Of a stretch of DNA of 61,411 bases, positions 4,277-61,243 are shown piece by piece. Below the pieces are notes generated by a model, which worked only from the letters and a program-made list of their open reading frames with translations, did not search any database and had not been told where the DNA came from. The DNA is from Spizellomyces punctatus DAOM BR117 (lineage: Eukaryota): the NCBI GenBank assembly GCA_000182565.2, contig KQ257460.1, one strand, 5' to 3'. The first letter of the stretch is position 1. Each line of letters starts with the position of its first letter. The position numbers and the translations under genes were made by a program.

Positions 4277-6060
4277 ATGGGGTGTGCGCCGTCAAAAAGC
4301 TCAGTTCAGGGTAACAGCTATCCGGGAATGGGACCGGGCCAAGGGCAACCTGTCAACCAGCTCCCGCTCCCGCCGCGCCCAAATCAGCCGCAACCTTCTA
4401 CTCAACCCACTCACTCCAATCCACAAATTGCTCCCGCACCTTCAGATTCATCGGGAATGTCGTTCATCACGCGACAGGGCCACACTCTATACGAAAATGG
4501 TCGACCATTCCGTTTCATCTCTATAAATGTTCCCAACCTTTTCTTTATCGAAGATCGCCCAGATGCTTGCGGGTGGGTCCTTCCAGACCCTTACGAACAG
4601 CACGACGCCCTCCTCACTGTGGCGCATATGGGTGGCCGAGTTGCGCGAACGTACACGCTGGGGGCCGGATGTAACTTTCACGTCACTCAGCCCCGGAAAT
4701 ATAATGAAGACTGCTTTGTGGCGATGGATCATGCTCTGGCGATCGCCAGGAACGTGGGTGTGCGTTTGATTGTGCCCTTGGTGAATAATTATGGCGGAAA
4801 GGATGAAGTAGGGGCATGTGGGGATGCTCTTTTTGGGAACTATGCTGCGTTTGCGGGTTTACGAGGAAAGAAGCCCAGTGCATTCTGGACAGATCCAGAG
4901 TTGGTTGAGGATTTCAAGCATTTGATCTCCTTTGTGTTGAATAGAGTCAACACCGTGAATGGAATACGGTAAGACATTTATAGATGATCTTGATCCACTA
5001 GCTTCAGTGACATTAAGAACACGGCAAATCAGATACGGCGATGACCCCATTGTCCTAGCATGGCAACTTGGGAATGAACTCGGAGGATGGAATGGACCGA
5101 ATCCTCCTACATCCTGGACATTGGGCATGACAGCTCACATCCGGTCGTTGGCACCCAACACGCTTGTCCTAGATGGAACGATGGGAGGGCTCAAAGCGAA
5201 AGATAAATACGACCGACAGGCATTGTCATCTCCCGCAGGACCCGATATCTTCACAAACCATTATTATTACGGCGAATCCGATATCAAGAGGCTGAAAGAC
5301 GATTCATCCTTTGTTGCAAAGCACAGTAAGGCCTTCATTGTCGGAGAGTTTGGATTTAGTAATACTGGAGTGTATGGACGGATGTATGAGGATATTTTGC
5401 GCAATGATAAGGTTACGGGCAGTTTGATCTGGAGTCTAAGGTGATACATTGACATTCTTTCAATCTTCCTTGCCCCTGATAATGATTTTTCTATGATATC
5501 TCCACATTGCAGATTTCACAGCATGTTCGGTACGCACTTTTCCATGCTTTCTTCTTTATTTGACGACTGACATTATCTATTCAACATTAGGTGGCTTTTA
5601 TGTTCACTCAGAGGAAGGCGGAAAATATTGGTCGTATCACGCACCAGGCTTCCCTTCCCGTAATCGGGGATTCTGTTTCGAAGAAGCTGAAGTGATTCCT
5701 CAAATACGCAACTACGCACTCCGCATTCAGGGTCTAGACCCACGTACTGTTCCGTACCCCGTCCCTCAGGCACCTTACCTGTTGGAGGACATTCGACCAA
5801 AATGCTTCCGATTTCGGGGAAGTGCTTGGGCAGCTCGCTATGTGATTTATAGGGGACGAGCTAGAGATGAGTTTGGGGGAGTAGAATGGGAGCCAAATCC
5901 CGTTGCGACAAATGTAACGGATGATGTGTGCAGTGGGTCAACGTTGTGGAGGGATGAGGGAGCGATGGAAGGGGTACCCTACTATTATGCTGTACAGGCG
6001 GTTGGAGTGGGTGGGGACTGCAGCCCCTGGTCTAATGTCGTCGGGCCAACATATGTGTAG
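4277..6060 (+). CDS. Glycoside hydrolase family 5 (beta-mannanase/mannosidase-like) with C-terminal FN3-like domain and N-terminal MGCAPSK acylation motif
   Basis: Motifs RVNTVNGIRYGDDPIVLAWQLGNE (acid/base Glu), DIFTNHYY, IVGEFG (nucleophile Glu) and GSLIWSLRFH; C-terminal YYYAVQAVG...SPWSN. Introns at 4969-5032, 5441-5512 and 5530-5590, with a 17-nt microexon at 5513-5529. Confidence 0.9.
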
Positions 6061-7287
6061 CAAGCAGTTCTTTAGGCATTATCTTAGCAAGCCATCAACA
6101 ACATAATACCAAGCAACTTTGCCCAACGGCAGCGACAACTAACCCACAACCGGGCCTGCATTCCATTATACTCAGCCTCCATAAGATGTTTGTAGAATAT
6201 TCGATCCGCCGAAGTCGCTGACCGATCATTTTTATCTCTGCCAGCTGTTTGGGAAACGAGTCAGTTATTCGCGCATAGCTGAACTCACACTCTTCGGTAA
6301 GGGGACATTGCTGTTAGCACGGGAAATACCTCTTCGGCGTCGAGTATGTGCAGAATGCTTTCTATGTAAGGAATCCTGTGGCGTGGCGAGTGAATTGAAG
6401 TAAAAGATGCCGGTATAGGTTTGAAACCAGAGCATGGCTAAATCGGGTATATCGTTTGCTTTAGCGGTGATGTGATGGTGTACTGGGAAATATTCCGACA
6501 AACTGAGACGATGCAGATTATCGTTTGTCTCGCGGGTCCCGGTATTTTCAACCGCATGATTCCATTCTGCAAAATAATCGATCCAGTTGCTTTATTTTGC
6601 AAATGTATATCCCAGTACCGGATAATGCTTGGGCAAGAATGGAAGGACATATTGGAAAGAATTGATCCAATTACTTAATGTCAGTCTTGCCATGACTTAC
6701 CAAGACGCGGATGTTCATGCACATGGTAGGAATCTGGTTAGGATCTCAAACCTCTTGCATTTTCTTGGCAGAGTAGGTGGATCAGACTTTTTGATATGAA
6801 ATCGGTGCACCAGGTCAACCCTCTGGCAGTATTTGAACCTAATACTGTTTTCCATGAGCTCTGAGGCGACACTAATGTATTTAAATATGGATATGCATAA
6901 AATGAGCGCCAAAACGAACGTTTATTGACCAAGGACAACTGAACAAACCCTTCTTTTCATTTTTGTACACAGTATGTTCTTTATACGTCTGAATACACTT
7001 TTTCAGATGGGATCTCTGAGGATATCGATGCGTAAAGAAGCTGCCATGAGTAGACGAAGGCACCAGCAAGCCGATCATGTTACGTAATGGTTGGAGTGCA
7101 CCATGCAAATGCATTGCAGCCTTGCGGTCAACGGCACGACCCTCATCACTGCCGGGACTTTCGGAGGGGTAGAACTATTTTGACATGTAAACAAACAGAA
7201 AGAAAACATCACTTTTAAAATCTATACAAACTCGTGAAGACGACAAAACCTTGGTTGGGCTTTTGTTGTTTTGTGCATTGACGCACC

Positions 7288-8961
7288 ATGACATCCCTGA
7301 ACGGCTTTGTAAAGCGAACTGGAAAGACACTGTTGGACCCTTCGACAAATGCACCTTTGCGCTTCCTCTCGTTCAATACTCCAACGCTACACCTCCATGA
7401 CGATCCTCAATTCGTTGTTCCAACCGAATACGAGCAAGATGATTTGCTTGCGTCCATTGTCGAGATGGGTGGCCGGGTGGTCAGGCTCTATTCGCTTGGT
7501 GTCCAAACACCACAAGAAGATTCGACAGCTGCAAAGCATATAATCAAAAGCGGAAGTGGGGTTGCGCTCAATGAACGGGTGCTTCGGGGATTGGACTCTG
7601 CGTTGAGTGTCGCCAATAGGCGAGGTGTGCGTGTCATTATCCCGCTTATCGATAGGTGGGAATGGTGGGGAGGGGTGGAGAGTTTCGTGCGATTAGTGAA
7701 TCCTACATTACCACCTTCAGCTTTCTATACCGATAATGGGATCCGGAACCAGTTTAAATCGATCGTTCAGCAACTTGTCAATCGTGTCAACACCGTTACC
7801 AACATCACCTACAAGGACGATCCGACAATTCTCGCCTGGGAAACTGGAAACGAACTAGAAGTGGAGGGAAAGAGGATTCCGGCGGACTGGACTGTTGATA
7901 TTGCTTCTCATATCAAAAATCTGGATCAGAACCATTTGGTTATGGATGGGTCGTGGAAACATGGATGGGACGAACAGGTGTTGAGGAGCCCGAATGTCGA
8001 TATCTTTTCGAATCATTATTATAGAGACGTAAGACTTTCGACAGGGGAGTGGATTGGAATCGGTGCTTTGGCGGCCGTAATAGGAGTTGCCGTTATAATA
8101 GGTGCTATGGCAGCCTGTATGCCTAGGAGAGTTGGTTGGATCAAGGTTCAGGAAGAGTCCAAACAGTTTACCAAGGTAAATCTTCTGTCGCGAGTCTTTA
8201 TTATCAATCGTACTAATCGCTAATCGGATTTACAGTCCCGATACCGAAACAGGCGCGTTATAACTGTCATTCTCGCTCTCCTTATCATCCTGGGCTCGGC
8301 GGGCGGTCTGACAGCCCTAATCTTGAACCGCATATCCAACCCTCAGTATGGTGCCTGGAGCGCTTCAGATGCCGAAACTGTATCCTCATATGACAAAGTC
8401 TTCATCACTGGCGAATATGGACTGGCATCAGCGTCATCTCTTCGGGGAGTTATGGACAATGTGATTCAAAATAAGCCCGGCTTTGCTGGTGCCTTGTTGT
8501 GGAGTTTGAGAGGACATTCCAAAGACGGTGGATTCTACATACATAAAGAAATGCACGGGTACTGGTCGTATCACTACCCCGGCTTCCCTACCGCTCCCGG
8601 ATTCGGCGAGGACGAGAGTACCGTTGTGCCGATGGTTGCGTCTTACGCTGCAGAATTGGCGAAGCAAACCAGCTTCACCATCCCACCCAAAGCTATACCC
8701 TCCCCGCCAACACTTTTGAATACTACTACTCCCGAGTTGAAATGGAGAGGGGTTAGCGGGTCGTCAAGCTATGACGTCGAAAGATCCGTGGGCAGTGAGC
8801 TGTGGGATGTTGTGGCGACCGTTGTAGATGCCAAGAAGCCTGGTGAGACATTATTTGTAGATCAGAATGTACAGGTGGGGAGAACGTATATGTACAGAGT
8901 TCGAGCGAGAAACTCGGTTGGCGTTAGCAATCCGAGTAATGTTGTTAATATTGGTCTGTAA
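7288..8961 (+). CDS. Second GH5 (mannanase-like) paralogue with two internal hydrophobic helices and C-terminal FN3-like domain
   Basis: Motifs RVNTVTNITYKDDPTILAWETGNE, DIFSNHYY, ITGEYG, GALLWSLRGH and TYMYRVRARNSVGVSNPSN. One intron at 8176-8235 joins the two ORFs in frame. Confidence 0.9.
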
Positions 8962-11119: not shown

Positions 11120-11960
11120 GACAGTCTCATGTGGTATCCGTCTAGCTAACTTGAAGTACTTGAAAGTCACATATCTAGACCAGTATCGGCATCCAGTTCC
11201 GTGCAAACAGAAGTTCTGGTGAGTTCATTTATCTCAAGGCTCTGTGAACGTCTTCGAACCTGTCTTGTTTCTGGTGCCAGGCTGTGGCACTTGCGCTGCA
11301 CCGAATAGGAAGGTCTGCAGATGTGGAACTTTACACAGATTGTCGCCAAGTAATCTTAAGTAAGTGCTCGCTAGTCAACCTATAGAACAGCATGTGTATT
11401 AATTTCCTGATTTTAGCCATGAATTCATTACACAAGGAACCTGCGAAAACAAAAGTGTATCCCTTCGAGGGAGCCCTATATCAGGTATACATTGTGTAAA
11501 CTGGAAATGTGAGACTCTGGCGACGATGCTGACTTGTTTATTAGCTTATAATGTCCCGAGATGCAAGTACCACCATTCATTGGATTAAAGGGCATTCGAA
11601 TAACTACGGAAATGAGGAAGCAGATATGTTAGCAGAGATTGCTGCAATGTCATTGTTAACTACATGGAGACAGGTATTAGCTTGGGACACATCTTGCATA
11701 GCCACCTTCTTCTGATATATATGTTTGTATAGCAAAATGTATCGCACTGGCTGCATACAATCGGAGAGGCAAAGCCATACAAAGATCAGCGACGAGAAGC
11801 TAAGCAGATAAAAGCTGCTTATTCCCCCCGAAAGTCGTATAATCTCAGTGTCTTGCAGCTTCCGGGATTTCCCCAAATCAATCCTTGGAACCAGACTTCA
11901 TCTGTGACTTCTGCTCTTAGCGGAGCGGTTGCAGCGAACCTGACGAACCCCGTAAGATCA

Positions 11961-12401
11961 ATGAATGGATCAAAAAAGCGGAAACTGCAGGCTACGGAGG
12001 ATGTCGGCAATCCTGTAAAAAAGAGGGCCAAAAAGAAAACGAAGAAAAAGAAGACCAAGAAAAAGCACGACATCTCGATTAAAGCTGCTCCGCAAACGGC
12101 TGAGAGTTCCGCGAAAATCTCAGAGGTCCAAAAACAGAGCCAGACGAAGGCGAAAGATCGGCAGGCCGATCATAACTTGACACCAATCTCAGGCAATTCG
12201 ACCGAGAATCTGCCGTCGAATGAGAAGAAGGTACAGGAAGCTGGCAATGACTCGATGACAGCTGCAACCGTCAAAAAGAAGAAATCAAAAAAGCGGAAGT
12301 TGCAGGCTACAGAGGATGTCAGCACTCCTGAAAAAAAGAAGGCTAAAAAGAAGACGAAGAAGAAGACCAAGAAAAAGCAAAAGCACGACATGTCAAATTA
12401 A
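11961..12401 (+). CDS. Very lysine-rich low-complexity protein with an internal duplication; the frame stays open to 12539 past a TAA
   Basis: ATG at 11961 and two copies of SKKRKLQATEDV...KKKTKKK...HD, with NLS-like basic clusters. Confidence 0.5.
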   Translation: MNGSKKRKLQATEDVGNPVKKRAKKKTKKKKTKKKHDISIKAAPQTAESSAKISEVQKQSQTKAKDRQADHNLTPISGNSTENLPSNEKKVQEAGNDSMTAATVKKKKSKKRKLQATEDVSTPEKKKAKKKTKKKTKKKQKHDMSN

Positions 12402-60948: not shown

Positions 60949-61020
60949 TCCGCATTGGTCCAGTGGTTAGGATTCCGCGCTCTCACCGCGGCGGCCGGGG
61001 TTCGATTCCCCGATGCGGAA
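60949..61020 (+). tRNA. tRNA-Glu-CTC: tRNA-Glu (anticodon CTC), intronless
   Basis: Acceptor stem TCCGCAT/ATGCGGA, D-arm region TGGTCCAGTGGTTAGGA, anticodon arm CCGCG-CTCTCAC-CGCGG and T-arm CGGGG-TTCGATT-CCCCG; 72 nt. Confidence 0.97.
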
Positions 61021-61243
61021 CTATGGGGTTTGCGTGACCGATATTTTTCCAGATGCCTCTAATCGGTGCTGACAGGCAATCTATGACATGACCATATTGA
61101 TTTTGCTCCAAATCAAATCGAGCTGGACAAAGGACAGTAGATTTCTTTCTAACAGTATCTGATATATTCACATCAAGGAACAGACCGGAAAAATTATATG
61201 TACATGCAAGACAAATTTGGACTATCGCCTAGTCTCCAATAAT

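Follow-up and report, generated by a model that had tools for sequence, protein, structure and literature searches.

Where a catalytic TIM (triosephosphate isomerase) barrel is attached to a membrane, the anchor normally lies at one of its ends. KORRIGAN, a plant enzyme of glycoside hydrolase (GH) family 9, is a membrane-held polysaccharide hydrolase thought to act on chains near the synthase, and GBA2 (GH116) and the cytosolic fungal GH5 glycolipid hydrolases are leaderless β-glycosidases that act on glycolipids of the cytosolic leaflet. To our knowledge, no glycoside hydrolase has a transmembrane hairpin inside its barrel. Here we analyze a gene that appears to encode such an enzyme, SPPG_06394 of the chytrid Spizellomyces punctatus DAOM BR117, which lies in a 61,411-nucleotide (nt) stretch of contig KQ257460.1 (GenBank assembly GCA_000182565.2), the whole of which we call the window. 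Judging from the sequence and a structural model, its product is best explained as a predicted integral-membrane GH5 retaining β-glycosidase (clan GH-A, mannanase-like) whose catalytic residues are intact.

By sequence and by fold, SPPG_06394 is best matched by solved GH5 mannanases and mannosidases, namely BlMan5_7 (8gf3) and the enzymes of Thermotoga (3pz9 and 6tn6), tomato (1rh9), Rhizomucor (4lyp) and Trichoderma (1qno). With these it shares the (β/α)8 fold, the Asn-Glu pair of strand 4, the His and Tyr of strand 6 and the Glu of strand 7. The best phmmer matches in the Protein Data Bank are GH5 mannanases (8gf3 at 1.1e-24, followed by 3pz9, 6tn6 and 1rh9), and the best Foldseek matches are all GH5 barrels of mannanases and mannosidases, with a probability of 1.00 and, for 8gf3, a target-normalized template-modeling (TM) score of 0.83. 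The phmmer alignments take in only residues ~50–245 of SPPG_06394, that is, the part up to a hydrophobic insert, and this insert is not covered by any phmmer or Foldseek alignment to the solved GH5 structures. The UniRef name of the protein, endo-β-1,4-mannanase (EC 3.2.1.78), is automatic; its closest characterized relatives are mannanases, but their identity in the Foldseek alignments is just 14–20%.

A predicted membrane hairpin inside the barrel of SPPG_06394

Joining the two exons of SPPG_06394 (Table 1) yields a sequence identical to that of database protein P0121 (537 residues), annotated as SPPG_06394 of S. punctatus DAOM BR117, and exon 1 on its own matches P0121 with 100% identity and coverage. 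The start ATG at 7288 has an in-frame TGA upstream of it (7279–7281), the stop is the TAA at 8959–8961, and the 60-nt intron between the exons contains two CTAAT branch-like sites as well as an in-frame TAA (8221–8223). An earlier reading of the window from its letters only (hereafter the sequence-only reading) had proposed this intron, the same peptide strings and the same gene model, and had seen the TGA just before the ATG; since the splice product equals SPPG_06394, it was right on all of these points.

That the protein is a GH5 enzyme is supported by a match to PF00150 (GH5): with a cut-off of 23.5 bits, exon 1 scores 33.7 (E = 3.6e-08) and the full-length protein 32.5. An AlphaFold2 model, computed from an alignment of 117 sequences (A2), has a mean predicted local distance difference test score (pLDDT) of 96.2 and a predicted TM score of 0.93, and it shows the barrel folded around the insert. 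Arg66, Asn188, Glu189, His243, Tyr245 and Glu356 are invariant in A2, and His84 and Trp385 are at least 90% conserved. In a mapping of our own, we take Arg66, His84, His243, Tyr245 and Trp385 to be the canonical Arg/His/His/Tyr/Trp set of GH5, and Asn188-Glu189 presumably carries the acid/base, as in GH5 enzymes in general. The C-terminal β-sandwich also produces a weak Pfam fn3 hit (E = 0.008), which falls short of the cut-off.

From NHYY, which ends strand 6, to the nucleophile motif there are 107 residues in SPPG_06394, ~83 more than in its tandem paralogue SPPG_06393, where NHYY and GEFG are separated by 25. In the AlphaFold2 model, strand 6 (residues 239–244) is followed by two long helices (limits in Table 1), by helix 6 (residues 334–346) and by strand 7, so the insert lies in the loop that leads from strand 6 to helix 6. 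By Kyte–Doolittle hydropathy (about 2.5 for each segment) and the AlphaFold2 model, this insert is predicted to contain two membrane-length hydrophobic helices with polar or charged boundaries, as in a two-span membrane hairpin, which we call TM1 and TM2 (for transmembrane) and which are connected by a basic loop. Cys277 (8116–8118) is at the loop-side end of TM1, and the center of TM2 is Gly-rich (GSAGG), a feature common to the orthologues in Spizellomycetales.

In (β/α)8 barrels, loops that follow the C-termini of strands, such as the one from strand 6 to helix 6, face the catalytic side. Since the linkers that join the two hydrophobic helices to the barrel have only nine and seven residues, all polar in character, and the C-terminus of strand 6 is on that side, the catalytic face must be near the membrane surface; counting residues along the secondary-structure string, we infer a distance of roughly 1–1.5 nm. 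The sequence-only reading had described a GH5 barrel whose two catalytic Glu motifs (GNE and GEYG) are intact, some 80 extra residues relative to the paralogue, two hydrophobic membrane-length segments with a basic loop, and an insertion point after strand 6 on the active-site face. All of this agrees with the invariance of the motifs across the 117 sequences, with the counts above and with the model of the spliced protein, an intact barrel bearing a helical hairpin.

The insert is coding sequence

An alternative to a membrane hairpin is that the hydrophobic stretch belongs to a 318-nt intron, in which case the gene would produce a soluble leaderless GH5, or would do so as a second isoform. 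Splice-like ends do exist at 8029 and 8346, with a CTAAT 25 nt upstream of the CCCTCAG end, and skipping the segment between them would leave ~23 residues (counted) from NHYY to the GEYG block, where the median for insert-less relatives is 24. Against this, the reading frame stays open before and after the 60-nt intron, while the other two frames are interrupted by stops in the first part of the insert, as is one of them in the second. The guanine-plus-cytosine (GC) content of the exonic parts of the insert is 0.49 and 0.55, near that of the coding sequence of both genes (0.503), and the four local introns are only 60–72 nt long, with GC contents of 0.34–0.375 (0.367 for the 60-nt intron and 0.344–0.375 for the three of the paralogue). 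GC content was used instead of codon usage because the training set was small (two genes) and the composition of the insert is that of membrane segments; its codon-usage score, ~−0.04 to −0.08 in two frames, does not set the coding frame apart from one of the off-frames.

Furthermore, 45 relatives have an open hydrophobic–basic–hydrophobic insert that varies in length and sequence, AlphaFold2 models the insert confidently (block-mean pLDDT of 81–97), and the deposited annotation retains it. According to the paper describing the S. punctatus genome (PMC4991717), this annotation combined several methods with RNA-Seq, a statement that is genome-wide and not specific to this junction. The insert is translated sequence under selection, and we regard the intron explanation as very improbable. 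As the main form, the 318-nt intron was rejected on the basis of the protein of the relatives, the conservation inside the insert, its exon-like GC content and the AlphaFold2 model; a minor hairpin-less isoform produced by splicing from 8029 to 8346 is possible. The splice-like ends that bracket the hairpin may be a product of chance or a relic of the origin of the insert.

Distribution and origin of the insert in chytrids

Two word-index searches returned 240 homologues, 158 of which contain both motif patterns; the other 82, some of them truncated, were left uncounted, and among them the fragments P0002, P0003, P0007, P0008 and P0010 stop just past a first hydrophobic segment. Two hydrophobic segments are present in 26 of the 158, in an interval of 83–197 residues, and one segment in a single protein, while in 131 the interval has no hydrophobic segment and a median length of 24 residues (range 13–39). 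When 1.84 billion cluster representatives (50% identity) were searched with a profile, 13,288 matched at E ≤ 0.001, and the best 150, which we examined, included 113 new proteins. The two-segment insert is present in 19 of these, absent from 40 and doubtful in 1; the remaining 53 were not matched by the patterns, although six of them have two hydrophobic segments after the strand-6 motif. With both sets pooled, the full insert is found in 45 proteins. A search of the ESM Atlas with the hairpin by itself (residues 246–333) gave no usable match.

Orthologues from Spizellomycetales conserve GE(W/Y) before TM1, C-x-P-R-R-x-x-W-x-K after TM1 and NP-x-YG after TM2, whereas distant insert-bearers retain only the hydrophobic–basic–hydrophobic pattern. 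All 20 insert-bearers that have an organism name are from chytrids. They come from Spizellomyces, Gaertneriomyces, Powellomyces, Geranomyces, Phlyctochytrium arcticum, Thoreauomyces (two proteins) and Fimicolochytrium (three); from Rhizophlyctis and Borealophlyctis; from Globomyces, Kappamyces, Homolaphlyctis, Polyrhizophydium and Batrachochytrium dendrobatidis (P0135); and from Dinochytrium (a partial protein in which one segment was detected) and Phlyctochytrium planicorne (two). Seven taxonomy look-ups place the insert-bearers queried in the orders Spizellomycetales, Rhizophlyctidales, Rhizophydiales and Chytridiales (Chytridiomycetes).

In a quick maximum-likelihood tree of 71 proteins, built from the 459 columns in which half or more of the rows have a residue, the chytrid sequences group together (49 rows; Shimodaira–Hasegawa-like approximate likelihood ratio test [SH-aLRT] of 92). 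This group is made up of a subclade containing the paralogue (20 rows, SH-aLRT 99) and an insert clade (29 rows, SH-aLRT 96), the latter consisting of all 24 rows with the insert and five insert-less proteins. On this tree, the insert requires two changes, and holding the insert rows together was not rejected by the approximately unbiased test (p = 0.186, for a group chosen after viewing the tree). One gain followed by one loss, or two independent gains, are both possible. The sequence-only reading had considered that the insert might be conserved in orthologues from related fungi, and it is kept in 45 relatives, the named ones all being chytrids. It had also said that an architecture already common in its GH5 subfamily would count against its reading. 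By that standard, since it is conserved in 45 proteins, the insert is indeed common within one chytrid clade, but that clade is described in no paper that we found.

Opposing signals in the topology of the enzyme

The sequences flanking the two helices are strongly asymmetric. The loop is net positive in all 45 insert-bearers, and the eight residues beside the helices contain 270 Lys/Arg and 27 Asp/Glu on the loop side but 90 Lys/Arg and 75 Asp/Glu on the outer side. Boundary cysteines are skewed in the same direction: the loop side has 37, spread over 23 proteins, and the outer side has one. They often directly precede the basic cluster, as do Cys277 in SPPG_06394 and the CC runs in P0321, P0330 and P0363. 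Juxtamembrane cysteines next to basic residues are typical cytosolic S-acylation sites. The charge and cysteine asymmetries thus favor a cytosolic loop and an exoplasmic enzyme. The catalytic domain of insert-bearers is itself poor in cysteine (0.36%, with none in 14 of the 45, SPPG_06394 included), the corresponding values being 0.97% in a clade with a myristoylation motif that includes the paralogue (n = 9), 0.57% in leader-bearing relatives (n = 110) and 0.72% in leaderless insert-less proteins (n = 40). Two Zopfochytrium proteins within the 29-row clade have an N-terminal hydrophobic leader instead of the hairpin, which we count in favor of an exoplasmic enzyme. In the insert clade, N-glycosylation sequons number 197 in the soluble halves versus 167.6 expected, an excess that is partly due to a family-wide NNT motif and comes from sequences that are not independent, and six in the loop versus 10.4 expected; these counts favor neither topology. 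SPPG_06394 itself has native sequons at residues 172–174 (NIT) and 456–458 (NTT). Overall, we give slightly better than an even chance to an arrangement in which the basic loop is cytosolic and both halves of the barrel are exoplasmic, having been exported without a signal peptide.

A number of observations weigh against this arrangement. No N-terminal leader was detected in any of the insert-bearers screened (0 of 27 and 0 of 20), SPPG_06394 included, as the sequence-only reading had stated for this gene; these proteins begin right at the first barrel strand (M-x-x-F-V-T-R). Leaders are frequent in insert-less relatives (91 of 131 and 26 of 40), and for an exoplasmic barrel a retained signal peptide would be the simpler route, translocation of a 250-residue N-terminal domain without one being unusual. 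Three further members of the 29-row clade, P0012, P0015 and P0138, have neither insert nor leader. Finally, the paralogue SPPG_06393 starts with MGCAPSK (4277–4300) followed by a Pro/Gln-rich linker, and MGC[KSR]PSK occupies the very N-terminus of its Spizellomycetales orthologues P0244, P0245, P0248 and P0249; in P0243 and P0246 the motif is internal, behind longer predicted N-termini that are possibly mispredicted. We take MGC.PSK to be an N-myristoylation/palmitoylation pattern (Met-Gly-x-x-x-Ser/Thr with an adjacent Cys), so that SPPG_06393 has the sequence motif for this modification. Because N-myristoylation occurs only in the cytosol, the same family would include a cytosolic membrane-tethered GH5, and, going by this motif, the paralogue clade is very probably attached at the cytosolic face of the membrane. 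The topological puzzle raised by the sequence-only reading is real, the positive-inside and cysteine signals being in conflict with a universal lack of leader and with the myristoylation-type start of the sister clade.

The missing leader and the start of the sister clade would fit an enzyme that itself faces the cytosol, with both barrel halves on that side and the basic loop in the lumen or outside the cell. It would then act on glycolipids of the cytosolic leaflet or on lipid-linked oligosaccharides, for example, and the paralogue would be held on the same face by N-terminal acylation. No leader would be needed, only a short loop and not a 250-residue domain would have to cross the membrane, and an enzyme anchored by a cytosolic hairpin would be the parsimonious sister to a clade tethered in the cytosol by its conserved start and flexible Pro/Gln linker, with which the insert clade groups in the tree. 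GBA2 and the cytosolic fungal GH5 enzymes are precedents for such a topology. It would, however, require translocation of a loop whose net charge is about +7 and which is positive in every insert-bearer, contrary to the positive-inside rule; the boundary cysteines beside basic residues resemble cytosolic S-acylation sites; and the catalytic domain of insert-bearers is poor in cysteine, unlike that of the clade with the myristoylation motif. We consider a cytosol-facing enzyme unlikely, if a serious alternative.

The absence of a leader would also suit a hairpin and loop that act as a post-translational signal for the membrane of an organelle, such as the peroxisome or the mitochondrial outer membrane, with the enzyme facing the cytosol. 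We take a basic cluster between hydrophobic helices to resemble peroxisomal membrane targeting signals or outer-membrane anchors. Nevertheless, no result of the analysis points to an organelle, and helices of 23–24 residues, with Kyte–Doolittle values of ~2.5 over 19 residues, are longer and more hydrophobic than is typical of outer-membrane anchors. We regard this destination as quite improbable.

The paralogue and other features of the window

In the paralogue SPPG_06393, a 17-nt micro-exon (5513–5529, encoding FHSMF), flanked by a 72-nt and a 61-nt intron, is needed to reproduce its database protein P0241; SPPG_06394 has no intron at the matching position. In the paralogue clade (P0241–P0252), sequons are five-fold below the number expected from composition (4 versus 20.2, in nine related proteins), which may reflect shared ancestry. 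Batrachochytrium salamandrivorans has many close paralogues (P0257–P0265) in the clade on the paralogue side, with no obvious leader in the deposited models.

Elsewhere in the window, an open reading frame (ORF) at 11545–11712 (+) matches the C-terminal end of an RNase H domain (PF00075, 5.5e-06, 27 bits versus a cut-off of 25.8) and is probably a retroelement fragment. It is followed by a lysine-rich ORF at 11733–12401 (+), which has two near-identical stretches (KKRKLQATEDV...KKKTKKK) and no Pfam match. A tRNA-Glu (anticodon CTC) at 60949–61021 (+) is the only tRNA found in the window by ARAGORN.

Table 1. Positions in the window of the features of SPPG_06394 and of its tandem paralogue
Feature	Position	Strand	Description and evidence
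SPPG_06394 exon 1, residues 1–296	7288..8175	+	N-terminal three quarters of GH5 barrel, TM1, first part of basic loop
GNE acid/base motif, N188-E189, end of strand 4	7849..7854	+	Both residues invariant in A2; model strand 181–185
NHYY, residues 242–245, end of strand 6, conserved GH5 His and Tyr	8011..8022	+	H243 and Y245 invariant in A2
Linker RDVRLSTGE, nine residues, strand 6 to TM1	8023..8049	+	Sequence; GE(W/Y) conserved among the Spizellomycetales orthologues of alignment A1
Hypothetical alternative intron, 318 nt, in frame	8029..8346	+	Would delete whole hairpin; GTAAGA ... CTAAT ... CCCTCAG
TM1, W255–M278, 24 residues, WIGIGALAAVIGVAVIIGAMAACM	8050..8121	+	Kyte–Doolittle 2.54 over 19 residues; model helix 252–277
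Basic loop, P279–R303, PRRVGWIKVQEESKQFTK-SRYRNRR	8122..8256, split by intron (8122–8175 and 8236–8256)	+	25 residues, 9 Lys/Arg, 2 Asp/Glu
Intron, 60 nt, in frame	8176..8235	+	GTAAAT ... CTAAT ... TTACAG; removal reproduces P0121
SPPG_06394 exon 2, residues 297–537 and stop	8236..8961	+	Remainder of loop, TM2, helix 6, strands 7–8, C-terminal β-sandwich
TM2, V304–L326, 23 residues, VITVILALLIILGSAGGLTALIL	8257..8325	+	Kyte–Doolittle 2.51 over 19 residues; model helix 295–330
Linker NRISNPQ, seven residues, TM2 to helix 6	8326..8346	+	NP.YG conserved among orthologues
GEYG, nucleophile Glu356, strand 7	8410..8421	+	G355, E356 and G358 invariant in A2; model strand 351–357
Fibronectin-III-like C-terminal β-sandwich, residues ~450–534	8695..8949	+	phmmer match to myomesin FN3, 4.7e-07, residues 450–534; model β-strands
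SPPG_06393, tandem paralogue, insert-less	4277..6060; exons 4277–4968, 5033–5440, 5513–5529, 5591–6060	+	100% match to P0241; exons reproduce P0241 exactly

Discussion

If the enzyme is exoplasmic, it has to get there without a leader. We tentatively propose split-barrel export, which we see as possible though short of probable: the leaderless enzyme would cross the membrane in two pieces, the barrel would not close until both were on the exoplasmic side and the active site would be clamped to the outer leaflet. TM1, which is long and has a positive C-terminal flank, would take the 250-residue N-terminal part across in the manner of a reverse (type III) signal-anchor, while TM2 would be a type II anchor that exports the remainder. 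The loop would stay in the cytosol, where it would probably be S-acylated on its boundary cysteine. The N-terminal part comprises six of the eight β/α units and is unlikely to fold stably alone, and thus would stay translocation-competent. Reportedly, it is the folding state and not the size of such a domain that matters, going by the title of Denzer et al. 1995, a paper that Wahlberg and Spiess cite. Wahlberg and Spiess (1997; PMC2139883) state that flanking charges chiefly determine the orientation of signal-anchors, that a hydrophobic segment, if long, favors translocation of the N-terminus even when it is placed internally, and that this N-terminal domain has to be unfolded. SPPG_06394 has the sequence features of a type III signal-anchor protein, since it lacks a cleavable signal and its long hydrophobic segment is followed by a positive C-terminal flank, which makes type III insertion of TM1 plausible.

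As for function, an active site clamped near the bilayer would imply a substrate at the membrane surface, and the enzyme would cleave or transglycosylate a β-linked glycan there, for instance a chain that is leaving its synthase or the head-group of a glycolipid, instead of a free polymer. The sequence-only reading had suggested a glycolipid or lipid-linked glycan and not free mannan, a preference that would follow from the geometry. Because insert-bearers are spread over four chytrid orders and include the amphibian pathogen B. dendrobatidis, the enzyme probably has a core role at the cell surfaces or membranes of chytrids, and not in the digestion of plant litter.

Public databases already list the proteins themselves, as hypothetical entries or under automatic names; what is new is an unreported way of building a known enzyme family into a membrane. 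A literature search by title and start of abstract, which did not extend to supplementary files, found no published description of a hairpin-in-barrel GH5 architecture, and nothing relevant on mannanases and myristoylation. Nor did it find a paper that mentions SPPG_06394, SPPG_06393 or BATDEDRAFT_27925.

The nearest comparison is with the insert-less members of the same family (which have the database label PF26410 in addition to PF00150), SPPG_06393 included. They share the barrel, the C-terminal sandwich and the invariant residues, but their loop has a median length of 24 residues versus 107 in SPPG_06394, and most have a leader (91 of 131); the label PF26410 was not reported by the Pfam scan of SPPG_06394. 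With regard to membrane insertion, we know of no type III protein that translocates three quarters of an enzyme barrel, to be completed by a second export step, and the analysis turned up no such protein. Type III signal-anchor proteins otherwise provide the pattern that SPPG_06394 would follow, since they lack a cleavable signal, have a long hydrophobic segment with a positive C-terminal flank and have an unfolded N-terminal part translocated (PMC2139883). SPPG_06394 is a natural test case for the topogenesis of membrane proteins, in which positive-inside and cysteine signals are set against the absence of a signal peptide and the paralogue provides a built-in contrast. S. punctatus, moreover, is transformable.

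Among enzymes that work at membranes, GBA2 and the cytosolic fungal GH5 hydrolases belong to other families or subfamilies and are not known to have a transmembrane hairpin. KORRIGAN is a member of another GH family, and its one anchor, N-terminal and of type II, lies outside the catalytic domain, whereas the predicted hairpin of SPPG_06394 is inside the barrel. If the barrel is indeed exported in two pieces, chytrids would have their own route to a membrane-pinned β-glycanase, with a sister clade lipid-anchored on the opposite face.

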